Below, in pieces: positions 6,841 to 55,713 of a stretch of 64,000 nucleotides of DNA (positions are counted from its first letter, which is position 1; every line of letters begins with the position of its first letter). The notes under the pieces were generated by a model. That model saw only the letters and a program-made list of their open reading frames with translations. It was not told the origin of the DNA and searched no databases. The DNA comes from an uncultured Candidatus Saccharibacteria bacterium (lineage in GTDB: Bacteria; Patescibacteriota; Minisyncoccia; Phycocordibacterales; CSBR16-119): assembly GCA_964426385.1 (NCBI GenBank), contig CAYRQF010000001.1, positions 21,712-85,711 on the forward strand, read 5' to 3'. Both the position numbers and the translations under genes were made by a program.

Positions 6841-7431
6841 ATGTCTAAATCGATTTTCATCATTGGCCAGTCTGGCTCGGGTAAGGACACTCTGGCCGCA
6901 AGCCTCATCGAATATTTGGGAGGAGAATCAAAAGTGCTCTATATATCGACAGGCGAGGAGCTCCGAAAATTTACAAAAGGAGAGTATCTGACTGCGAAGC
7001 TTGCCAAATCCAACAACGAGAAGGGTCACATTGCACCATGGTTTGTTATCGTGGGGTGCTGGTTCAGGAAACTGAGCGAAGAATTTACTGGAGAGCAAAT
7101 AATGCTCTGGAACGGAACACCACGGTCTGCCAAAGAATTCGAGATACTTTCTCAGATGATCGAGTTCTATGGCAGGCATGCAGATATGATTCACCTCCAG
7201 GTACCAGACGAGGAATGCTTGAAAAGGATCACAGACCGGCAAAATGCTATAGGACGAGAAGAAACAAAAACCGAACAATCAATAAGAAACAAGCTTCAGT
7301 TTTATTACGATAAAGTCTTGCCGGCTATTGAGCTAGCTAAGACAGATCAGAATTTCACCGTTCATGAGATAGATGGGGCGGGGAGTAAGGAGGAAGTTTT
7401 TGAGAGGGTGAAGAAAGCCCTGTCGATATAG
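6841..7431 (+). CDS. P-loop nucleotide/nucleoside kinase family protein (AAA_33 / adenylate-kinase-like)
   Basis: Walker A GQSGSGKDT at N-terminus; about 196 aa, typical NMP-kinase size. Confidence 0.45.
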   Translation: MSKSIFIIGQSGSGKDTLAASLIEYLGGESKVLYISTGEELRKFTKGEYLTAKLAKSNNEKGHIAPWFVIVGCWFRKLSEEFTGEQIMLWNGTPRSAKEFEILSQMIEFYGRHADMIHLQVPDEECLKRITDRQNAIGREETKTEQSIRNKLQFYYDKVLPAIELAKTDQNFTVHEIDGAGSKEEVFERVKKALSI

Positions 7432-7432
7432 G

Positions 7433-7505
7433 TGCGCGATAGAGGATTCGAACCTCTGACCTACCCCACGTCAAGGGGTCGCTCTACCAACTGAGCTAAC
7501 CGCGC
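7433..7505 (-). tRNA. tRNA-Val (anticodon GAC)
   Basis: Reverse complement folds as a cloverleaf: acceptor GCGCGGT/ATCGCGC, T-loop GGTTCGAATCC, anticodon loop TTGACGT; no encoded CCA. Confidence 0.85.
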
Positions 7506-7609
7506 GATAAGAGAAACAATACTATAAAAGCGGGCTTGATTCAAGTAAAATTAAGGCATAAGATAGTCCCCGAGAGAGAAGATCGTTTAACCCAACAACT
7601 CAAGAAGTC

Positions 7610-8005
7610 ATGATCAGCATAGCGGTTGTTTTGCCAACGATTGAAGAGGGGCAGGAACTCTTCTGTGTGTCTTACAGTACGATAGTGCACAAAGCGGATG
7701 GTGAGACCAAAGGCCACTTCTTCTTTGCCGAAGACCTGGAAGACCCGACCGTAAACCTTATATTGGAAAAGGTCCACAGTCTTCTCGAAGATCCAGAGTG
7801 GTCAGGATTTCTACTGATACTTCTTCGCGGTGAAGAAGAAATGGCAGGTAATATGCTTGGTTTGCTCGAAACCAAGCTAGCTGGTGAAAAACGACTGAGT
7901 ATTTTCATCGATGACCCTGGAGAAGAAGATCTGTCTGTTCCGCTCACGTTCGACATAATGCACAGAGCGTCACTGATCGGTTCCTTGGCGAACCACAAGA
8001 ACTGA
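7610..8005 (+). CDS. hypothetical protein (131 aa)
   Basis: ORF between two tRNAs, followed by a terminator hairpin at 8012-8040; no recognisable motif. Confidence 0.3.
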   Translation: MISIAVVLPTIEEGQELFCVSYSTIVHKADGETKGHFFFAEDLEDPTVNLILEKVHSLLEDPEWSGFLLILLRGEEEMAGNMLGLLETKLAGEKRLSIFIDDPGEEDLSVPLTFDIMHRASLIGSLANHKN

Positions 8006-8011
8006 GAAATG

Positions 8012-8040
8012 AGGGGCCTTTAATCAGGCCCTTTCTCGTT
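8012..8040 (+). terminator. rho-independent terminator GGGCCT-TTAATC-AGGCCC plus TTTCTCGTT
   Basis: Stem-loop followed by a T-run. Confidence 0.5.
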
Positions 8041-8102
8041 GCCAAAAAAGCGAAAAATGATATACTCTCATTGTTTTTAGGCTATGTGCCGAAAAGACAC
8101 AT

Positions 8103-8174
8103 GGCCCCATCGTCTAACGGTTAGGACAGCAGGTTTTCAATCTGTTAATCGGAGTTCGATTCTCCGTGGGGTCA
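8103..8174 (+). tRNA. tRNA-Glu (anticodon TTC)
   Basis: Acceptor GGCCCCA/TGGGGTC, T-loop GTTCGATTC, anticodon loop TTTTCAA; possible promoter TTGCCA-N16-TATACT at 8039-8066. Confidence 0.8.
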
Positions 8175-8251
8175 CAAAATAGAGAGCTAGTTCGAGCGCT
8201 CTAGAAGTGCTACAGGTTTATAAATAAGACAGTATTATTAAGTGTTAGCAA

Positions 8252-9727
8252 ATGAGTAAACCAATAAACCTATTGTCATTGGTGCAGGCAAAAAATACCC
8301 TGTCTAATTCAGCATTTGAAAATTTCAAAAGTCACTATCTTCTGGAATTTAGGGACAGCGAAATAGACGACTTGTCTTCCTTGATTATCTGCCTGAATGA
8401 AAGTGGGTGTTTAATTCCGGATTTGGACAACTTTGTAGTTGGATATAAAATACCTCAAATTGGAAAAGAGTTTGATCTTCTTCGTTTTGGGTATGAACTC
8501 ATAATTAACATAGAGTTAAAAAAGACGAGTGACGAAGAGAAAATTAAAAGACAGCTTGCACGAAATAAACACTACCTTAGTTTTGCAGGACTCAAGACGT
8601 GTCACTATATGTATTTGTCTGAGTCTGGTTTATTTTTTAAACTTGGTGGATCTGGTGAAATTGAGAACATAAAAATTCCAGAACTTACAAGACAGCTTAA
8701 AGAACAGGCTTTGTCACAAGAACAAAATTTAGATGATTTCTTTAATCCTGCAAGTTACTTAGTGTCCCCGTTCAATTCGACTGAAAGATTTCTTGCTGGC
8801 GAATATTTTCTAACTCATCAACAGGAAGAGGTCTCTGATACAGTGATGGATTATCTCGCAACACACACAGAACCTGGTTTTATCAGTCTCAAAGGGGGTG
8901 CTGGAACAGGTAAATCTTTGCTGGTCTATCATATTGCAAAAGACGCACTTAAAGCTGGCAAAAAAGTACTAATCATACATTGCGGAATACTCAACCAAGG
9001 CCACGACCTACTTAAATCGATAGGCTGGGAAGTTCAACCTATCCGCTTATATAAAGGCTTAAAAATCTCAGATTATGACCTAATAATCATAGATGAAGCG
9101 CAGCGTTTATTTGATTACCAATTCAAACACCTCTCAAAGGAAGTCAAAACCAGCAAGGCTTTGTGTATCTTTTCTTTCGACAAACTTCAAACCTTAGCTG
9201 CTTTTGAGGACAGATTTGATATTGAATGTCAAATATCTTCACTTATTCCAATCTCAGACCACACACTCTCAGAAAAAATAAGGTCGAACAAGGAAATTGT
9301 TGACTTTATTGTCATGTTGTTTAACAAGAATAAAAACTATGAAATTAGAGGAGGTAAAAACATATACTTAAAGTATTTTTCTACAAACAAAGATGCTAGT
9401 GATTATCTAAGTAGTTTGGATAAAGATGAGTGGCAATTGCTAAGATTTACGCCCTCACTGTTCAGTGTCGAACACCATGAGTCCTATTTTCGACAGGACA
9501 CACCAACATCTCATGGAATAATTGGGCAAGAATTCGACAATGTAGTTGTAGTGATTGATGAATTATTTTCTTACCACGAAAGTGGTCAGCTCGTTTATCG
9601 CGGTAGATCTTACTATCATCCGAGAAAAATGTTATTTCAGAATATCACTAGAGCAAGAAAGAAAGTACTAGTCGTAATCATTAACAACGAAGAGCTACTT
9701 GAGAGATGTGTGCAAATACTTAGATAA
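8252..9727 (+). CDS. DUF2075-like protein: N-terminal NERD/PD-(D/E)xK-like nuclease domain plus SF1 (Dda/RecD-like) helicase ATPase
   Basis: Walker A GGAGTGKS, Walker B IIIDEAQR, motif-VI-like NITRARKKVLVV; N-terminal EFDLL...ELIINIELKK resembles a PD-(D/E)xK core; about 33% GC, much lower than flanks; directly downstream of tRNA-Glu. Confidence 0.6.
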   Translation: MSKPINLLSLVQAKNTLSNSAFENFKSHYLLEFRDSEIDDLSSLIICLNESGCLIPDLDNFVVGYKIPQIGKEFDLLRFGYELIINIELKKTSDEEKIKRQLARNKHYLSFAGLKTCHYMYLSESGLFFKLGGSGEIENIKIPELTRQLKEQALSQEQNLDDFFNPASYLVSPFNSTERFLAGEYFLTHQQEEVSDTVMDYLATHTEPGFISLKGGAGTGKSLLVYHIAKDALKAGKKVLIIHCGILNQGHDLLKSIGWEVQPIRLYKGLKISDYDLIIIDEAQRLFDYQFKHLSKEVKTSKALCIFSFDKLQTLAAFEDRFDIECQISSLIPISDHTLSEKIRSNKEIVDFIVMLFNKNKNYEIRGGKNIYLKYFSTNKDASDYLSSLDKDEWQLLRFTPSLFSVEHHESYFRQDTPTSHGIIGQEFDNVVVVIDELFSYHESGQLVYRGRSYYHPRKMLFQNITRARKKVLVVIINNEELLERCVQILR

Positions 9728-9841
9728 GGCTCACAATCATATCTCTCGAGATGGGTCGAAGTGGTTATCAAGTAAACCGCCAGAAAAGCATTACTGGGTA
9801 ATAAATTTAATTGGTTCCATCTCGAGAAGGCTTACAATACC

Positions 9842-9876
9842 AAAAAGTCTTGGAAGTATTTCCAAGACTTTTTGTT
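9842..9876. terminator. bidirectional terminator AAAAGTCTTGGA-AGTAT-TTCCAAGACTTTT
   Basis: Perfect 12-bp palindrome flanked by A/T runs. Confidence 0.6.
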
Positions 9877-9890
9877 ATTGAACTAATATG

Positions 9891-9919
9891 AAAAAGCCGG
9901 CTGGTGGGCCGGCTGTTCC
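9891..9919 (-). terminator. terminator for the lpxC-like gene (GCCGGC-loop-GCCGGC with T-run on the minus strand)
   Basis: Hairpin plus AAAAA on the plus strand (TTTTT on the minus strand) immediately after the minus-strand stop. Confidence 0.5.
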
Positions 9920-9933
9920 AAAAGGTTCAATTT

Positions 9934-10731
9934 TCACCTCGCACAATTCTTGATGGCGAGGAAGTCTGGCTTGTGGCCGGACCGTACGCTGAGCAGGTGC
10001 CCCGCTGGCAACTCGGTGTGGTAGAGGAGGCTCATCGCCCCAAGCATGTCGCACAGGCGATGGCTGGCAGCATTCTGTAGCCAGAGATCGTGCGGCTCGA
10101 GATGAGGCCACGATACACGATGGTCGTGCTTCCAGATCCCAAGCAGTCTCAGAGCTGGAGCCATACTGCTCCACAATTTTCCGTACGCGGGGGCATAAGC
10201 TTTGAGATGACCTACCAACGCTACAGGATCTCCAGAGTTCCACGATAGCGAGTTCTCGCCGATGCCAGGATAGTCGATAGACACATCCACTCGGAGTTCC
10301 GTATCAGACCACCCTTGAGAGATCTCTGTCCGCGCCATCCCCGAAACCCCGGAAGTCTCGAACCTCCTGATGGCGAAGGGGATGAGACCGTCAATCCGAG
10401 TTTTGCTCTCTATTAATTCCCAGAGTTCGTAGGGTCTGCCGTGATATGGTGGCCAGCCGCTAGGGCAGTGGATCGTTACATTGTCTAGCCCGAGCCAACG
10501 CAAGACTCCGATATGCTCGTATACATTCAGTTGCTCGCCGTCTTCGTTCTGGAGCAGTAGACGCTTGAATCGATGTTGAAGTAATCGGTGATCTATAGGC
10601 AGTACTTCATCGGCGGTCTGCCACCACCAGCCTCGCTCAGCCATCGGTGTGAAGGTGATGGTCGAGGGGTGTCCCCAATAGTCTAGACCGGAGCAGGACA
10701 CTACGTCCGTGAGAACTTTTCTCGTGATCAT
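9934..10731 (-). CDS. LpxC-like UDP-3-O-acyl-N-acetylglucosamine deacetylase family zinc hydrolase
   Basis: Collinear LpxC motifs: VYEHIGVL (EH pair), SHRLCDMLGA (HKMLD, HxxxD zinc site), SGHKPDF (SGHALN); N-terminus TRKVLTDVVSCSGLDYWGH matches the LpxC start; probable start at internal Met (10731); about 58% GC and Trp-rich, atypical for this genome. Confidence 0.5.
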   Translation of the reverse strand: MITRKVLTDVVSCSGLDYWGHPSTITFTPMAERGWWWQTADEVLPIDHRLLQHRFKRLLLQNEDGEQLNVYEHIGVLRWLGLDNVTIHCPSGWPPYHGRPYELWELIESKTRIDGLIPFAIRRFETSGVSGMARTEISQGWSDTELRVDVSIDYPGIGENSLSWNSGDPVALVGHLKAYAPAYGKLWSSMAPALRLLGIWKHDHRVSWPHLEPHDLWLQNAASHRLCDMLGAMSLLYHTELPAGHLLSVRSGHKPDFLAIKNCAR

Positions 10732-11243
10732 TTCGTCGGATTTTGTAACCCTGCTTCGGCACAATGCCTCAGCTTCTGCGGATAGTCTATGGGAAGTCGT
10801 TTAAAAGGTCAATAAAAGCAAGAACACCTCAGATTTTCCGAGGTATTCTGTGTTGCGCCCAAACGATTTTTCAGGAAACGTCAACGGGCTTATTGACTTT
10901 TTATTCGCTTTATCACAATATTCGGATAGATCTTTCTGATATGGAAACCTACGAAGTACCAGCTGCGACGGCAGCGACGCAACAGCGCTTTGAGCGTATG
11001 AAGCGTAGACTCCGGGGTCTGTATGAGCAAGGAAGTGTTTCGGTTTCATTAGTGCAAAGGAGGATGCAAACCCTCTGTATGCCTGACGCAAGTCCAGTAC
11101 TGTCCGAGCTTACCCTCGGGACGTTCGTCAGTTTGTCCACCGGCAGAGCACACCCGTCTCTGCGATCAAAGCTATTGGTCCGTACACTTACCCTGTACAG
11201 ACTTCTTCACGCGGCTAGACTCGCGTGACACCCCCTACATGGG

Positions 11244-11270
11244 AAAAGGCCTCACACTGTGAGGCCTTTT
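11244..11270. terminator. bidirectional terminator AAAAGGCCTCACA-CTGTGAGGCCTTTT
   Basis: Perfect hairpin flanked by A- and T-runs, just downstream of the stop of the large minus-strand gene. Confidence 0.65.
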
Positions 11271-11282
11271 CTTCTGTCAGTT

Positions 11283-14200
11283 TTATATGGGGACTCCGCT
11301 CGAGTTTATATTTATCGGAAGCTCGCACGTGTAGATCATGTTCCAGTCTTTTCGACGTTCGTAGCTTTTGAGCGCAGTAAGCAGGGAGGCCGTACATGTT
11401 CTCTGAATACTATTACCGTTGATGTTGAGTGTGATCGGCTGAGAGAAATTCACCATATTCGGATGGAGCCAGACAGATAGGTTCGTGACATTGTTCGTTG
11501 TAACATTCACCGTGTTCCCGGTGATGGTCGCTTCAGCTTTTCCGGCCTGAAGATTGACTGTGTCTACTGCGAGACTCCAATTATTAAAGTTTGTCTGACT
11601 TGAACAGCCGCCGTCGCCCTGAGGTGTTGCACGATTGTAGGCGATCGTACCTGTGCCGTACGAGTTGATAGATAGCCACATTGTGTGTGGGCTCGGATCC
11701 TCGTTCCAGACAGCATTCCAATTACCGCCAACATTATAAGTTCTCCATGGGTTGATGGCGATGACATGATTGCGATATGGATTTCTGGAGTAGCTGTTAA
11801 CTGTACCCGTTTGGCCATTTAGGAAATTCCTCCAAGCCACTGCGCCAGGCTCTGTGGCTGTCGTCGAGGTATCGAAACCGTGTCCCGGGACCATTGGATA
11901 TTCTATAAGGCTGTCATTTGGATTGTTGGAGCCTATTAGCTGATGAGCTTGTCGTGCGAATTCTACAGCGGTCATGTGATTGCGGCACTCCATTTCTGGA
12001 TCAGCGTCGGTATTTTGATAGTAGGCGTCATTAGTTCCGTGAATAGTATGAATAGGTAGGTCGGTGAGAGACGCCCATGAGCCAAGTGACCAGGCTCCGC
12101 CATTGGCCATTACTGCCGAGAGTCTGTCATTCAAGCGATGTGCCATATGATACGATCCGATACCTCCCATAGATGTGCCGGTCACAACTATTTTGTTGTA
12201 ATCGATATTATATCGTGATGCGATCTCGGTAATGATGTCGATAAGGTAATCGTCTGCCGACGGTACGTCCCAGCGCGCAGGGTGAGTGAACATGTTTGCA
12301 TTGGTCTGGTATCCAGGAAGCATTGTACCGAACGGGGCGATAGGTGCCACGGCGATATAGTTTGAGTTATCGCTGTTCCTGCGGATAACAGATCTACCGG
12401 TCAGAGTCTCATCGTCGAGAACCCATTCGGTTATGTAACTATCGTTGGGGTCAGAAGTCCCTGGATAGTCGAGCTCTATAGGGTCAAATGATCCGCCCCA
12501 ATGTAGGAAAAACATAAGCCCGACCGGAGTATTCGGGCTGTAGTTCGGCGGAACTACCATATTGAACTCAGGTCTGTATGATTCTGTGGCAGGAGTAGCT
12601 GGGTCGTTCCATGCTGGGTATTTTGATACTAATGCAGGGAGAGTGAACTGTTGGTTGAACACTTCACCGGTTGGTTGCGCCACATAGTCATTGGGTTGGA
12701 CTTGGTCTATAACGCTATCGATAGAAGTGTTCCAGGCGGCGAGGTTCGGCTCGAGAGCTGTACGCGCTGCTCCTGATGCTGCGAGCCACTGCTCGGCTTG
12801 TGCGACTATCTCACTCTGCGATTGACCACTTCCGGCGGTAGCCCCACAGAGACCATTTATCGTTGCGGTGACGTCGATGATTTTATCCGAAGCGTAGCCG
12901 GCGGCGGTCATAGCGTTTATGATTCGTTGATTCATCGGCCATGGCCAGAGATCTTCATTGGTGAGCACGCCATCGACGTAGCGCTTCATGACAGTCGCGC
13001 CACCAGTAATACCTAGATTGTTCACAACGTTACCGCCGTTCGCAATGATGCTCGAGCAACTCGACGTGTTGTAGTTGTTCGATGTTGACCATTGGTTGTT
13101 GATACTCGTTCCACCGGTGCTCACGAAAGTGTTGTTCGTCGCTGAGTTGAAACCAGCTCCGCCGATATCACCGAGATATGGGTTACGGATATTGGTGTGG
13201 GATCCGGGCTCGATCACTCCTACACTATTCTCGAGTTGCACCCCTTTGATCTCTAGTGCAAACGGTCCAGCCCAGTCACGTGATGGGGTAGGGACATTGT
13301 GGAAACGTTGATCAGGTTTGAGATATGCGATAGAGCCTAGTATGCGAATATTTGCATTATCAGGATTGCCTTGCGCAAGGAAGGATGAATCAAATCCGTC
13401 GTGTCCAAATATTCCACTCGGCTGTTGGACGGTGTAGTTCGAGAAACTTTGCGTTGGGCTGACCTGTGTGCCGTTGTATTCGAGGAGGTTGTACGTAGCA
13501 GGCATACCGAGCGAATCCCATGTTCCGATACAGTTCTCACAGAGCGCGCCGTAACTGTTGTAGGACAAGGCAAATGCCTTTTTCGGTCCAGACATTTTCG
13601 AACCTTCCCATCGGGCGAACGCTCGACGGAACGTCGTATTGTCGCCCTCCTGAGAGTTACTAAAAGTTTTACGTGCACCTGCACCAAATCCGGCAACGTC
13701 TTCGAGTAGGTTGTTGTCACCGTGATGAACGCCGAAGATGTTGTTGTCGCCAGTATTCATCGGAGCCTTCCAGGCTACGACTCTGCGGATGATGTTGTTC
13801 GAAGAATAACCTAGAGATACGACACTTCCGCTAGAATCATAAGCGTCGAATCCTTCGAGGACGAACCAGTTGTTGTAACTGAGGTTTACAGGTTTGTTCG
13901 AACCTTGGCCATTAATTTTTACTGCACCGTCGTTCATCGCTCTCACGGTTATCGGACTTCCTGCGGTCCCGGATAGATTGTCCGGAGGGTCGATCATACT
14001 ATTCGCGCCTGTATACATACCATCTAGAAGTATGAGTGTCGCCCCTGGTCCAGCTACACTCCAAAAGTCATTTATTTTGAATGGGGAACTGATACTGAGT
14101 CCATTGCCAGTACCGGTCGGCGAAGCGTAGTAAGTTATCCCAGTTGTCCCGGTTGGTAGTTGCTCTACTACTATATTGTTCGGGGTTTGACCACCTACTG

Positions 14201-15362
14201 ATACGAGTATCGGGTCACGATCATTCCCAGACCCAGTGTATTTTACTGTGCCATTCATATTCACATCTGCTCCCGAATAGGTATTTATAATTTGATTATT
14301 TGGCGTCGAGCCTCCTACCGCAGTGAGTATGACGTCTCTGTCGTTGCCAACGCCTGCGTACTTAACCTCTCCATTACCGTTGACATCTCCAGGCCACAAA
14401 ACACGAACCCCACCTACAACTTTCGCGGCATTGGTCCCATATAGTGGAGCAGTAGATAGGTCTACCACAGAAGCTATGCTGACTGCGTTCGCGGTCATAA
14501 CAGCGAGGTGGTTTCTGTGGTGAACGGCGACATAGTAGGTTCCAGGAGTAAACGTCCCGAGTATCGGCGTTATACCATCGGTTGACATAACATCTCCATC
14601 AGCCTCTACTAGAGCCGGTTTGGATGCGACTATTGTCGCGGGGTTCGCAGAATTTCGTAACTCAACGACGATCCAGTCAACTATGGCATCATCACCGGTA
14701 GGATTTAGAACAGAACTCGATATAGTGCTTCCGGCACCACTAGTTAGAGTGTGGCCAAGGGCAGTATAGGGCTCTGTTAGAGGTATCAGGTTCGAATCAT
14801 TGAGTCCTGTGGACATTCTGTTCGTGGCCTGAATATATGGTCCCCCTAGAAAGACCCGGAGATTGTTGGTCGGGTTGTCCGGGCTTCTGCTCAAGCTATC
14901 ATCGGTAATATTGAATCGGTAGGTTACAGGTGGTCCGTCAACTCCAGTCGCTCTAGGGCCGGTGAATGCTCTAACAATGAGGTTATATTCACCTACTACC
15001 ATACTCGGACCGTAGAAGTTACCATTACTATCATCACGATATATGGCGTACGGAGCTTTGCTGTCTGACCTCTTCTTGCCGTTGATTTCAAACATAACAC
15101 TCCCTACTTCTTCTGGATCGGTCACAGCCTGAAAAGTAATCTTTTTGTTACCAGAGATATCGATAATAGCTCCATCAGCAAGTTCACCAATAGATAGCTC
15201 AGTTTCAGTATCGATAATAAGAACACTCTGTATCAGCTCATCAGAAACGATGGAGTCAGAGATACTAGCTGTAAATCTCTGATTCGAACTACTGCGCATC
15301 ACCGAGGCCGAGGATGCTAGTACAGCAACAACCGCGACCAAAAAGAGAACTTTTTGTTTCAT
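11283..15362 (-). CDS. large secreted multidomain protein: signal peptide, Ig-like region, dockerin-like Ca-binding repeats, right-handed beta-helix (pectin-lyase fold) and alpha/beta-hydrolase esterase domain
   Basis: MKQKVLFLVAVVAVLASSASV signal peptide (start probably 15362, not 15383); tandem GDVNGNGEVKYAGVGNDRDVIL / ADVNMNGTVKYTGSGNDRDPIL repeats; beta-helix-like GTTGITYYASPTGTGNG...; esterase nucleophile elbow VTGTSMGGIGS (GxSxG) and HGG-like FFLHWGGSFD. Confidence 0.7.
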   Translation of the reverse strand: MKQKVLFLVAVVAVLASSASVMRSSSNQRFTASISDSIVSDELIQSVLIIDTETELSIGELADGAIIDISGNKKITFQAVTDPEEVGSVMFEINGKKRSDSKAPYAIYRDDSNGNFYGPSMVVGEYNLIVRAFTGPRATGVDGPPVTYRFNITDDSLSRSPDNPTNNLRVFLGGPYIQATNRMSTGLNDSNLIPLTEPYTALGHTLTSGAGSTISSSVLNPTGDDAIVDWIVVELRNSANPATIVASKPALVEADGDVMSTDGITPILGTFTPGTYYVAVHHRNHLAVMTANAVSIASVVDLSTAPLYGTNAAKVVGGVRVLWPGDVNGNGEVKYAGVGNDRDVILTAVGGSTPNNQIINTYSGADVNMNGTVKYTGSGNDRDPILVSVGGQTPNNIVVEQLPTGTTGITYYASPTGTGNGLSISSPFKINDFWSVAGPGATLILLDGMYTGANSMIDPPDNLSGTAGSPITVRAMNDGAVKINGQGSNKPVNLSYNNWFVLEGFDAYDSSGSVVSLGYSSNNIIRRVVAWKAPMNTGDNNIFGVHHGDNNLLEDVAGFGAGARKTFSNSQEGDNTTFRRAFARWEGSKMSGPKKAFALSYNSYGALCENCIGTWDSLGMPATYNLLEYNGTQVSPTQSFSNYTVQQPSGIFGHDGFDSSFLAQGNPDNANIRILGSIAYLKPDQRFHNVPTPSRDWAGPFALEIKGVQLENSVGVIEPGSHTNIRNPYLGDIGGAGFNSATNNTFVSTGGTSINNQWSTSNNYNTSSCSSIIANGGNVVNNLGITGGATVMKRYVDGVLTNEDLWPWPMNQRIINAMTAAGYASDKIIDVTATINGLCGATAGSGQSQSEIVAQAEQWLAASGAARTALEPNLAAWNTSIDSVIDQVQPNDYVAQPTGEVFNQQFTLPALVSKYPAWNDPATPATESYRPEFNMVVPPNYSPNTPVGLMFFLHWGGSFDPIELDYPGTSDPNDSYITEWVLDDETLTGRSVIRRNSDNSNYIAVAPIAPFGTMLPGYQTNANMFTHPARWDVPSADDYLIDIITEIASRYNIDYNKIVVTGTSMGGIGSYHMAHRLNDRLSAVMANGGAWSLGSWASLTDLPIHTIHGTNDAYYQNTDADPEMECRNHMTAVEFARQAHQLIGSNNPNDSLIEYPMVPGHGFDTSTTATEPGAVAWRNFLNGQTGTVNSYSRNPYRNHVIAINPWRTYNVGGNWNAVWNEDPSPHTMWLSINSYGTGTIAYNRATPQGDGGCSSQTNFNNWSLAVDTVNLQAGKAEATITGNTVNVTTNNVTNLSVWLHPNMVNFSQPITLNINGNSIQRTCTASLLTALKSYERRKDWNMIYTCELPININSSGVPI

Positions 15363-15574
15363 AAAAATACTAGGACTTTGCAAAGCTGTTAATAGCCTAA
15401 TTATATGTCATTACGGCTCGTATAAATACGGATTTTGGGGGTGAGTGTGAACAACTAGACGGGTAGGCCGGGCGGTTAAGTTTAGTTGACAGTCAGATAA
15501 ATAGACGTTGTAAAACGGCCTGACGCTCCAACCAACTCAGGCATTTTACTTTGATTTCTGCCATACGTTTTAAT

Positions 15575-53647: not shown

Positions 53648-54058
53648 ATGACAACTGCAAATAAAGAAAAATATTTTGAGGCAGTAGGACGCAGGAAGAC
53701 TGCGACAGCACGTGTGAGACTCACTGCTTCTACTAAGCCTACGTTTACAGTGAACGACAAGACTCTCGAAGAATACTTCCGAGTAGCAGACCTCCGAGCT
53801 ATCGCCACAGAGGCATTCGAGAAGAATCCTATCGACAAGAAATTCTCAGTGTCAGCTCATGTTAATGGCGGGGGGATGAACGCTCAGGCAGAATCTATCC
53901 GTCACGGAATCACACGATGCCTCGTTGAGTTCGATGAGTCATTACGTGCTCCGCTCAAGAAGCTCGGTTTCCTCAAGCGCGATCCTCGTTCACGCGAACG
54001 TCGCAAGGCCGGTCTCGCTCAGGCTGCTCGTAAGCGCAAGCAGTGGAGTAAGCGCTAA
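53648..54058 (+). CDS. rpsI: 30S ribosomal protein S9
   Basis: GRRKTATARVRL start and C-terminal ARKRKQWSKR. Confidence 0.9.
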   Translation: MTTANKEKYFEAVGRRKTATARVRLTASTKPTFTVNDKTLEEYFRVADLRAIATEAFEKNPIDKKFSVSAHVNGGGMNAQAESIRHGITRCLVEFDESLRAPLKKLGFLKRDPRSRERRKAGLAQAARKRKQWSKR

Positions 54059-54079
54059 TCTCAAATACAATATCTCGAC

Positions 54080-54107
54080 AAAATCCCCCACGGGGATTTT
54101 GTCTTTT
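54080..54107 (+). terminator. rho-independent terminator AAAATCCCCCA-CGGGGATTTT plus GTCTTTT
   Basis: Perfect hairpin plus T-run after rpsI. Confidence 0.65.
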
Positions 54108-54215
54108 AGGGGAGATATGCATATTTTATCCACCGTGATATGGGACAAGCCCTGTCCTATAGGAGTACAATGTTTAGAGAATCGTTTCTCTTTCACCAAC
54201 CAAATCCTCAACGCC

Positions 54216-54503
54216 ATGAGAGCTAGAACGTCGCTGTTCGTTTTGTTGATGGCAGGTACGACCAGTCTTCTCGCCCAGAAGCCGGTCTATCCGAACCCCG
54301 CAGGAGATATGGTCAAGATCGAAGCACCAGATAGCTCGGTCGTTACCATCGTCAATGCGACGGGAGGTGAAGTCAGGCGCGGCGTTACCGCGAATGGCTA
54401 TATCGAGCTCGATACCAAAGAGCTCGGTGAAGGGCTGTACTTCGTGAATGTGGTAACGGCTAACCGGCCGACCACCACGAGGCTCATCGTGGAGCACAAA
54501 TAA
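54216..54503 (+). CDS. minimal secreted protein: signal peptide plus Por/T9SS-type C-terminal sorting-domain-like module (95 aa)
   Basis: Signal MRARTSLFVLLMAGTTSLLAQ; remainder YPNPAGDMVKIEAPDSSVVTIVNATGGEVRRGVTANGYIELDTKELGEGLYFVNVVTANRPTTTRLIVEHK matches Por_Secre_tail pattern (YPNPa...i.n..G..v......g...ld...l..G.YFv.v.....t.klv); upstream in-frame extension overlapping rpsI judged spurious. Confidence 0.5.
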   Translation: MRARTSLFVLLMAGTTSLLAQKPVYPNPAGDMVKIEAPDSSVVTIVNATGGEVRRGVTANGYIELDTKELGEGLYFVNVVTANRPTTTRLIVEHK

Positions 54504-55162: not shown

Positions 55163-55196
55163 GAAGGGCGCTCCGTAAGGCGCTCTTTTGCTTTTT
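55163..55196. terminator. bidirectional terminator AAGGGCGCTCC-GTAA-GGCGCTCTT plus TTGCTTTTT
   Basis: Imperfect GC hairpin plus T-run between convergent genes. Confidence 0.45.
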
Positions 55197-55713
55197 ATTT
55201 AATATCAAAACTTTTCTTTAGAGATTCTTCTGTGATCGGATCTATGTGTTGAGTAACAACGATAATTATTTCGTCGTGTAGTCCTAGATCTGTTTTTATA
55301 TTTAAGAAAAGATGCTCGAATGGATAGGGTGATACCCAGACCGAGTTTTTCATACAGAGGAATCCTGCCTTTTTTAGGATGTAACGGATCGAGTCGCGTT
55401 CGCTTTTCCTAGACTCGGGCAGGTCGAGCATGACCATGCGCCAGAAACCGTCCCAGCGAGTGTCGACGAGACTTTTCGGATTACTTAGTTTTATATTACG
55501 GAGTTTCTGACGACCTTCAGGGGTGATGCGGATGAACGATGACTGAGCGGTCTCGATCTCTTCTACGAGTCCGGCCTCTGACAGATTCTTCAGACTGCGG
55601 GTCAGGGCGTAGCGGTCCTTTTGTCCGTCAGCAGAGAGGTCAGCCCTATTCAGGGCTTTTTTTGAGGCCAGGGTTTCGAGGATTTCCTCTTGGATTTTAG
55701 CTTTTCTTGACAT
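55195..55713 (-). CDS. winged-helix transcriptional regulator with PaaX-C/Cas2-fold-like C-terminal domain; divergent from grpE-dnaK-dnaJ
   Basis: N-terminal wHTH-like EEILETLASKKALNRADLS...LEKLSEAGLVE; C-terminal WDGFWRMVMLDLPESRKSERDSIRYILKKAGFLCMKNSVWVSPYP resembles the PaaX C-terminal WxGxW...P...R motif. Confidence 0.35.
   Translation of the reverse strand: MSRKAKIQEEILETLASKKALNRADLSADGQKDRYALTRSLKNLSEAGLVEEIETAQSSFIRITPEGRQKLRNIKLSNPKSLVDTRWDGFWRMVMLDLPESRKSERDSIRYILKKAGFLCMKNSVWVSPYPFEHLFLNIKTDLGLHDEIIIVVTQHIDPITEESLKKSFDIK

Follow-up and report, generated by a model that had tools for sequence, protein, structure and literature searches.

A Putative Nhi Defence Cassette at a tRNA-Glu Gene and Its Probably Unrelated LpxC-like Neighbour in a Probable Patescibacterium

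Introduction

A 64-kb stretch of contig CAYRQF010000001.1 (positions 21,712 to 85,711 of the forward strand; the whole stretch is referred to below as the window) carries, downstream of a tRNA-Glu gene, two convergent genes of opposite base composition. One is AT-rich and encodes a 491-residue protein with nuclease and helicase motifs; the other is GC-rich and encodes a 265-residue protein that resembles LpxC (UDP-3-O-acyl-N-acetylglucosamine deacetylase, Pfam PF03331). The original prediction, made from the sequence alone, saw in this arrangement two separate acquisitions at a tRNA-proximal hotspot, namely a candidate defence gene and a deacetylase gene that might have been transferred recently from a Gram-negative donor. 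The locus thus raises the question of what the two genes are, and whether both of them, or only one, arrived at the tRNA-Glu gene from elsewhere.

The answer that we consider probable is that they are two unrelated neighbours: an Nhi cassette inserted at a native tRNA-Glu gene, and a resident LpxC-like gene belonging to a distinct branch of its family. The tRNA-Glu gene, the open reading frame (ORF) of 491 codons, the convergent ORF, the hairpins and the motifs quoted in the prediction were all present in the sequence. The compositional skews ran in the two directions described, although their values had been slightly exaggerated: upon recomputation, a G+C content (GC) of ≈33% became 36.0% for the 491-residue gene, and ≈58% became 55.6% for the LpxC-like gene. 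Related loci on metagenome or metagenome-assembled genome (MAG) contigs were compared with the window, and are denoted by L-numbers where they need to be told apart.

The Nhi/AbiO Protein

The 491-residue protein is encoded at 8252–9727 on the plus strand, starting 76 nt 3′ of tRNA-Glu. It matched the PADLOC profile for AbiO over its full length (PDLC02350, E = 1.2e-171) and that for Nhi with residues 3–490 aligned to positions 2–469 of the 470 in the profile (PDLC02372, E = 2.2e-167). The match to Pfam PF09848 (formerly DUF2075, now SLFN-g3_helicase) was above the cutoff but modest, at 29.9 bits against 24, and the generic P-loop families AAA_30 and Viral_helicase1 matched as well. These searches bear out the suggestion of a defence gene. 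The more specific label of a DUF2075-like NERD-helicase survived in part: a PF09848 helicase with a D...ExK motif is present, but no NERD hidden Markov model (HMM) matched the protein in the Pfam search.

The motifs quoted in the prediction were located at residues 73–91 (EFDLL...IELKK), 214–221 (GGAGTGKS), 281–284 (DEAQ) and 464–472 (NITRARKKV). In an alignment of 117 homologues, 175 columns were at least 95% conserved, and the protein carried the family residue in 173 of these; the two exceptions, H107 in place of tyrosine and V350 in place of alanine, lie outside the named motifs. The N-terminal PD-(D/E)xK-type nuclease motif, comprising D75, E88 and K90, is intact and falls in such highly conserved columns, as do E37, D40 and Q101. 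The superfamily 1 (SF1) helicase motifs are likewise intact, including Walker A (GxAGTGK, 215–221), Walker B (DEAQR, 281–285) and motif VI with its arginine finger (QNITRxR, 463–469). Bacillus plasmids (among them ones of ≈182 kb from B. anthracis), plasmids of Enterococcus, Pantoea and Providencia, and a few phages carried full-length homologues with 30–47% identity. The closer clade, with 64–78% identity, occurred on metagenome and MAG contigs only. Judged by its sequence, the 491-residue protein is a further member of the known Nhi/AbiO defence family.

AbiO is an abortive-infection gene of a Lactococcus lactis plasmid and has been established experimentally as a defence system. Nhi, or nuclease-helicase immunity, was described in Staphylococcus epidermidis RP62a (Bari et al. 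2022, Cell Host Microbe 30:570). It is a single, multifunctional nuclease-helicase that detects and degrades phage-specific replication intermediates, and the phage single-stranded DNA-binding protein (SSB) has been implicated in its activation (PMC11084316, PMC10732053, PMC13381803). By homology with the S. epidermidis protein, the Nhi encoded in the window would recognise phage replication intermediates, with phage SSB as the likely trigger, and would then unwind and degrade the phage DNA, thereby blocking the accumulation of phage genomes. An anti-phage activity and a trigger of this kind are most likely, by analogy with the S. epidermidis system.

In common with Nhi and AbiO, the protein combines an N-terminal nuclease motif with an SF1 helicase, is encoded by a stand-alone single gene, and resides on mobile DNA. 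It differs from them in its host, a probable Patescibacterium and thus an ultra-small bacterium, in belonging to the separate clade mentioned above, and in its carrier, a 1.66-kb cassette tied to tRNA-Glu rather than a plasmid or a cassette of the staphylococcal cassette chromosome (SCC) type. Very few defence systems have been reported in Patescibacteria (PMC12366544). In five contexts (the window, L027, L029, L031 and L032), nhi was the sole gene in common, with no conserved partner, and Pfam searches of the small ORFs beside nhi or the LpxC-like gene at other loci returned nothing useful. PADLOC detected no additional defence gene among ten unannotated ORFs of the window, so that Nhi appears to be solitary here and not part of a defence island. 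The surroundings of the copy in L032 resemble such an island, with a reverse transcriptase, a GIY-YIG nuclease, an N6/N4 methyltransferase and an SNF2 helicase.

Extent and Ends of the Cassette

Two independent comparisons delimit the segment that carries nhi. Window positions 8171–9837 aligned with positions 139–1810 of L031 at 78% nucleotide identity, and the alignment stopped at both ends. A second locus, L025, which is 97% identical to the window at the nucleotide level, followed it from 10815 to 9834 and then diverged. We therefore place the cassette at ≈8171–9835 on the plus strand, a length of ≈1.66 kb that reaches from the end of tRNA-Glu to an AT-rich hairpin and comprises a leader, nhi, and a structured 3′ end.

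The tRNA-Glu(ttc) gene (8103–8175, plus strand; identified by ARAGORN, and by Rfam with 59.4 bits) is native, and its 3′ end (...GGGGTCAC) forms the left junction. The leader that follows (AAAATAGAGAGCTAGTTCGAGCGCTCTAGAAG..., 8176–8251, plus strand) is homologous in L027, L031 and L032; the conserved leader in its longer form reads AAAATAGAGAGCTAGTTCGAGCGCTC.... The AT-rich hairpin at the other end, a candidate bidirectional terminator with 21-nt arms (9835–9880), is assigned to the native flank because it is also found in L025, which lacks the cassette sequence of the window.

The inverted repeat pointed out in the original prediction is real, with arms TCTCGAGATGG (9744–9754) and CCATCTCGAGA (9817–9827) that are perfect over 11 nt and enclose 62 nt. 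Since CTCGAG is palindromic, the same arms double as a direct repeat, TCTCGAGAWGG. The first arm keeps its position in L027, L031 and L032 and belongs to the conserved 3′ end of the cassette. The right end of the cassette, GGTTCCATCTCGAGAAGGCTTAC (9813–9835, plus strand), resembles the 3′ end of tRNA-Glu, GGAGTTCGATTCTCCGTGGGGTCAC, in degenerate form: about 14 of 28 positions are equal, and the junction always falls after YAC. The cassettes of the window, L031 and L032 share this right end, whose conserved sequence reads GGTTCCATCTCGAGAAGGCTYAC, and what L025 carries at this junction differs but likewise ends in GGGTCAC. This pattern is suggestive of an attachment (att)-type repeat at the right end. 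A repeat search found no exact direct copy of the tRNA 3′ terminus, and the degenerate look-alike emerged from the alignments alone.

The spacer that separates nhi from the LpxC-like gene is 206 nt long and contains three structures, namely the inverted repeat, the AT-rich hairpin and a GC-rich terminator. The spacer sequence of 198 nt that was folded had a predicted energy of −69.9 kcal/mol, compared to −43.1 ± 4.4 kcal/mol for shuffled sequences (z = −6.1). A permissive Rfam search of positions 9700–9940 and 10700–11320 gave terminator-like chance matches only.

Insertion and Spread

The presence of nhi is polymorphic among related loci, and the edges of the polymorphism are sharp: L025 breaks at 9834, the L031 alignment ends at 9837, and L026 and L003 lack the gene. 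L026 has the order LpxC-like gene, terminator, tRNA-Val on the minus strand, 28 nt, and tRNA-Glu on the minus strand, without nhi, and its tRNA-Glu is 94.5% identical to that of the window. The order in L003 is LpxC-like gene, terminator and tRNA-Val on the minus strand, again with no nhi there. The 62-nt tail of L025 contained no recognisable tRNA. In relatives, tRNA-Glu and tRNA-Val lie on the same strand, 28 nt apart, beside the LpxC-like gene (L026, 1620–1795). In the window (7431–8175), tRNA-Val has the inverted orientation, and 600 nt separate it from tRNA-Glu, which is downstream of it, pointing to a further rearrangement at this locus.

In three independent contexts, a tRNA-Glu gene was found upstream of nhi and on the same strand: at a distance of 76 nt in the window, 236 nt in L027/L028, and 2.2 kb in L029/L030, where small ORFs fill the interval. 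The Nhi protein of the window is 78% identical to that of L031 and 75% identical to that of L029, compared to 25% for the MurF proteins of the latter pair. In L029 itself, the penicillin-binding protein and MurF are 49% and 44% identical, respectively, to those of a Saccharibacteria MAG, and its host resembles Saccharibacteria. The GC content of nhi was 34–36% in each host examined. Within the window, which has a recomputed GC of 46.2%, the gene is the minimum, at 36.0% overall (z = −3.0 against the 48 ORFs considered), with 33.1% at third codon positions (GC3).

Taken together, these comparisons support the view that the cassette was acquired horizontally and inserted at a hotspot linked to tRNA-Glu, and the prediction that the helicase gene had been acquired at such a site stood up to comparison of the tRNA-Glu flank among relatives. 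The cassette spreads horizontally among distantly related Patescibacteria, landing repeatedly downstream of tRNA-Glu. Since it encodes no recombinase, we infer that its insertion is presumably catalysed in trans. A precedent exists in the Nhi-restriction-modification (Nhi-RM) cassette adjacent to SCC, for which Ccr recombinases provide mobilisation in trans (PMC11470126).

Like tRNA-targeting islands, the cassette is inserted exactly at the 3′ end of a tRNA gene and is polymorphic between strains; the sequence at its far boundary may be a repeat of the tRNA end. Unlike them, it has at best a degenerate repeat, and no integrase was found either in the cassette, which has one ORF, or in those ORFs of the window that were scanned with Pfam. 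At 1.66 kb and one gene, it is also far smaller than typical islands. At L032 6541–6612, the right-end motif of the cassette is followed directly by a second copy of the leader, an arrangement with the look of a tandem-cassette or att-like junction. As a secondary possibility, a cassette such as this one, which has tRNA-like ends but lacks a recombinase, might represent a new kind of small mobile defence cassette that circulates among Patescibacteria.

We also considered whether the cassette might be mainly selfish, with a nuclease-helicase that promotes the movement of the cassette, perhaps through homing into sites that resemble tRNA-Glu. The single gene, the conserved ends, the lack of a recombinase, and the repeated association with tRNA-Glu would fit such a role, as would the tandem juxtaposition of right-end and left-leader motifs in L032. 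However, the family is experimentally one of defence, as in the Nhi of S. epidermidis, where mobilisation is by Ccr in trans (PMC11470126), and the copies in L029 and L032 lack one or both of the conserved ends. This makes a mainly selfish element very improbable, and we continue to regard the insertion as an acquired defence cassette.

The LpxC-like Protein

The gene that converges on the cassette occupies 9934–10731 on the minus strand and encodes 265 residues from an ATG (276 from an upstream TTG); 265 is also the length of the database protein. A word-indexed search yielded seven relatives, four of which carried weak PF03331 annotations, and five of the seven family members matched PF03331 weakly, with a best E-value of 1.1e-9. 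A profile built from the seven relatives matched Aquifex LpxC with E = 2.4e-11, collinear over 7–267 and with the EH, HxxxD and GH motifs aligned. The AlphaFold2 (AF2) model of the protein had a predicted local distance difference test (pLDDT) score of 82.4 and a predicted template modelling (pTM) score of 0.82. When this model was compared to the PDB with Foldseek, the top 50 matches were all LpxC, with E-values of 4e-14 to 4e-12, template modelling (TM) scores of 0.69–0.74, and 17–18% sequence identity.

When 1.84 billion representative proteins were searched exhaustively with an HMM, 421 matched at E ≤ 1e-3 and 214 at E ≤ 1e-30. The representatives stand for clusters at 50% identity, so that at least 214 clusters fall within the stricter threshold. 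These counts indicate that the family is small and well separated from the much larger family of canonical LpxC proteins. Among the best 150 matches listed, lengths were mostly ≈260–300 residues.

Residue conservation was scored across 148 family members. E72, H73, H224, R225, D228, H253 and D256 were present in 141–148 of them (137–148 when G252 is included). The zinc ligands H73, H224 and D228 and the catalytic residues E72 and H253, each found in 145–148 members, aligned with the corresponding residues of Aquifex LpxC and are equivalent to His79, His238, Asp242, Glu78 and His265, respectively, in E. coli numbering. The prediction of an LpxC-like enzyme with EH, HxxxD and GH intact was thus corroborated by the profile, by Foldseek and by the 148 family members.

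The protein shares with LpxC (PF03331) the two-domain fold, the His/His/Asp zinc ligands, and the catalytic Glu and His. The basic residue next to the second His is Arg in the LpxC-like family and Lys in LpxC. Further differences are the low identity of 17–18%, an Ala at the position of Asp246, variability at the position of Thr191, and invariant residues specific to the family, including D256; W35, P95, Y96, W200, H202 and W208 are conserved solely in the LpxC-like family. Unlike LpxC, the gene has no lipid A genes nearby and no conserved operon partner. The 265-residue protein is a remote homologue of LpxC, from a branch that is apparently restricted to Patescibacteria. The sequence and the model suggest that it most likely acts in the cytoplasm as a metal-dependent deacetylase or amidohydrolase on a substrate other than the lipid A precursor; candidates would include another N-acetylated sugar or nucleotide-sugar in envelope or salvage metabolism. 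The family appears to be undescribed in the searchable literature, and of the two genes it is the more novel.

Residence of the LpxC-like Gene

Relatives of the LpxC-like protein occur in seven named genomes, all of them from Patescibacteria, namely Saccharibacteria (four), Paceibacterota, Parcubacteria and Minisyncoccia. The nearest homologues are 48% and 45% identical, followed by others at ≤34%, and they are metagenome proteins from contigs syntenic with the window. L003 has the same order as the window, with FtsA (81% identical), FtsZ (91%) and TrxB (77%) preceding the LpxC-like gene. In L007, a distant Paceibacterota locus, ValS is followed at some remove by the LpxC-like gene, TsaD, a kinase, MurE and MurD. 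The ValS and TsaD of the window share synteny, and 62% and 49% identity, with those of a Paceibacterota MAG, and named relatives of its FtsZ at 72–76% identity belong to Paceibacterota or Paceibacteria.

Putative transcription signals accompany the gene on both sides. A GC-rich intrinsic terminator at 9895–9914 on the minus strand is conserved in L003 (AGCCGGCTTACCCCGGCTTTTTC) and L025, and a promoter-like site, TTGACC-17-TAGACT, lies at 10784–10812 on the same strand; the latter was found by consensus scan alone and is weak, matching at 9 of 12 positions. Gene-neighbourhood inference across the LpxC-like family found variable neighbours (UvrB/C, LysS, MraZ, EF-P, TsaD and others) and no conserved operon. 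The metagenome scan turned up no relative of the LpxC-like gene close enough to display the locus in more strains. Each of the two genes occurs elsewhere without the other; the adjacency of nhi and the LpxC-like gene is therefore coincidental, and the genes are independent.

The base composition of the LpxC-like gene bears directly on the proposal that both genes were acquired recently and separately at a tRNA hotspot, the GC-rich one from a Gram-negative donor. The gene has a GC of 55.6% (z = +2.4 against the 48 ORFs), its GC3 of 63.2% is the maximum of the window (z = +2.1), and it is flanked by two strain-variable segments, the Nhi cassette and 10816–11280, which is different in L025. However, three other genes have a GC3 of 61–62%, placing the LpxC-like gene at the edge of the native range and not as a clear outlier. 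In 12 of 13 relatives, moreover, its GC exceeds that of the locus, whatever the GC of the host (for example, 50.8 vs. 43.7%, 41.3 vs. 35.7%, and 44.7 vs. 36.0%), which argues that the excess is intrinsic to the gene and no scar of transfer. The nearest homologues are on syntenic contigs, the more distant named carriers are all Patescibacteria, the gene order with FtsA, FtsZ and TrxB in L003 and with ValS and TsaD in L007 is retained, and canonical LpxC is merely 17–18% identical to the protein. A pair of recent acquisitions is accordingly very improbable. Neither the recent Gram-negative donor nor the two separate acquisitions of the original prediction held up; judged by its relatives and neighbourhood, the LpxC-like gene is a long-term resident and not a recent import.

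Contrary Evidence

Several observations weigh against the account of an inserted Nhi cassette beside a resident, active LpxC-like gene. With respect to the cassette, the look-alike of the tRNA end agrees at only ≈14 of 28 positions, so that site-specific integration is putative. No integrase or transposase was found among the 43 Pfam-scanned ORFs of at least 131 residues in the window, and no phage or prophage was visible within it. In L026/L003, moreover, tRNA-Val and tRNA-Glu are ordered and oriented differently from the window, so that a simple insertion alone is insufficient to account for the locus.

With respect to the LpxC-like protein, the sequence on its own had no match in Pfam (E ≤ 0.1), NCBIfam, PADLOC or the sequences of the PDB. 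The equivalent of Asp246, the partner of His265, is A232 (Ala in 93 and Asp in 7 of the 148 family members), and that of Thr191, the stabiliser of the oxyanion, is A180 (Thr in 67, Ala in 26, Pro in 26 and Ser in 25). The protein is 48% identical between the window and L003, compared to 77–91% for neighbouring genes, and it differs from the 97%-identical strain L025 by six nonsynonymous and seven synonymous substitutions, compared to 12 and 83 in the neighbouring gene. In L026 (873–1693), the LpxC-like gene is truncated at its 3′ end just before HxxxD, and the ORF runs across the terminator hairpin into tRNA-Val, marking this copy as a probable pseudogene. The fast divergence and the truncation in L026 suggest that constraint may have been relaxed, or function lost, in this lineage.

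These data would be expected if the LpxC-like gene were decaying, or its product a non-catalytic pseudoenzyme, in the present lineage. However, the window has an intact ORF with a promoter-like site and a terminator of its own, confidence in the AF2 model is high (pLDDT 82), the seven near-invariant residues are kept, and none of the six amino acid differences from L025 affects them. Decay is thus unlikely, if less so than a recent transfer, and an active enzyme is the interpretation that we favour.

A FtsZ relative with 83% identity to that of the window is labelled “Bacteroidetes bacterium”, although this may be a mislabelled MAG. In addition, an ORF at 53925–54503 contains a Por_Secre_tail domain (type IX secretion (T9SS) C-terminal sorting; E = 1e-10), which is unexpected in a presumed monoderm Patescibacterium. 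Along with the LpxC fold and the complete set of metal-binding and catalytic residues, both would be in keeping with a diderm host in which the 265-residue protein is a genuine LpxC of lipid A synthesis. To our knowledge, Patescibacteria have no outer membrane and do not synthesise lipid A. The other named FtsZ relatives, the synteny around ValS and TsaD, and all named carriers of the LpxC-like gene point to Patescibacteria as the host. None of lpxA, lpxD, fabZ, lpxB and lpxK was found in the window or in the annotated flanks of related loci, and the window ORFs scanned with Pfam included no other lpx gene and none of the kdt, lpt or bam groups, in line with the earlier remark that no other lipid A gene is present. 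The Pfam LpxC model, furthermore, is silent on this protein, the equivalents of Asp246 and Thr191 are replaced, and the family forms a separate cluster with a few hundred representatives. A role in lipid A synthesis therefore seems hardly credible to us. A fuller proposal is an LpxC-like enzyme of an undescribed, Patescibacteria-restricted branch that is active on a substrate other than the lipid A precursor and could be a relic of the lipid A pathway of a diderm ancestor, since repurposed for envelope or salvage chemistry in bacteria that have no outer membrane. We advance it only tentatively, as one that is quite possible but has somewhat more doubt than belief attached to it.

Other Features of the Window

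Upstream of the cassette, a promoter-like site (TTGCCA-16-TATACT) at 8039–8066 precedes tRNA-Glu. The tRNA-Val(gac) gene is at 7431–7505 on the minus strand (ARAGORN and Rfam), and between the two tRNA genes lies an orphan ORF of 131 residues (7610–8005) with its own terminator-like hairpin at 8014–8031. At the gathering threshold, Rfam found the two tRNAs and nothing more in the whole window. A 15-nt inverted repeat (8079–8093, AGGCTATGTGCCGAA; 10755–10769, TTCGGCACAATGCCT), complementary at 13 of 15 positions, brackets the block of tRNA-Glu, nhi and the LpxC-like gene; it is probably due to chance, as the region contains equally good pairs.

Upstream of the LpxC-like gene, a block at 10866–11198 is 71% identical to L003 4603–4944, a level of conservation equal to that of the neighbouring coding genes. 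It has many 1–2-nt indels, no codon periodicity, and perfectly conserved stretches of 14–17 nt. A conserved promoter-like sequence, TTGACT-N18-AATATT, is found at 10893–10922, and a palindromic terminator at 11243–11271. The block had no Rfam match and a minimum free energy (MFE) z-score of −0.9, and a two-sequence RNAalifold analysis gave eight compensatory pairs. In L025, the segment corresponding to 10816–11280 is swapped for 432 unrelated nucleotides. The block may specify a non-coding RNA or have a regulatory role. A 154-residue ORF at 10764–11228 on the plus strand was rejected as a gene: it has no homologues, contains indels, lacks codon periodicity, and is probably not a gene.

Beyond this block, a 1366-residue protein is encoded at 11283–15383 on the minus strand. 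It has no Pfam match; a GxSxG esterase-like motif (GTSMGG) was seen by eye near the C-terminus. The gene is 97% identical at the nucleotide level in L025, with 12 nonsynonymous and 83 synonymous differences, consistent with strong purifying selection. An ORF of 172 residues at 55195–55713 on the minus strand contains a PaaX central Cas2-like domain (E = 3e-21) and had weak PADLOC matches of CARF type (E = 5e-5), but neither a CRISPR array nor a cas gene was seen near it. Housekeeping genes elsewhere in the window include those for PrsW, ValS, TsaD, FtsA/Z, MurA-F, MreB, RRF, RpoA, DnaK/J, CysS and CorA. There is also a carotenoid cluster, three ORFs of which are labelled from precomputed annotations alone.

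Implications

Patescibacteria are a huge and mostly uncultured group of bacteria, and we know of almost no phages that infect them. The locus described here suggests that a known defence enzyme, Nhi, circulates in this group on a compact cassette that targets tRNA-Glu. The cassette would offer a concrete marker for the mobile defence genes of Patescibacteria and for the recombinase that moves them. The LpxC-like protein, an LpxC fold with an intact active site in bacteria presumed to lack lipid A, points to a step of deacetylation, as yet unassigned, within envelope or salvage metabolism, and may bear on the presence of an outer membrane in the ancestors of Patescibacteria. Neither point upsets current understanding; both are ordinary in kind, and useful as leads.

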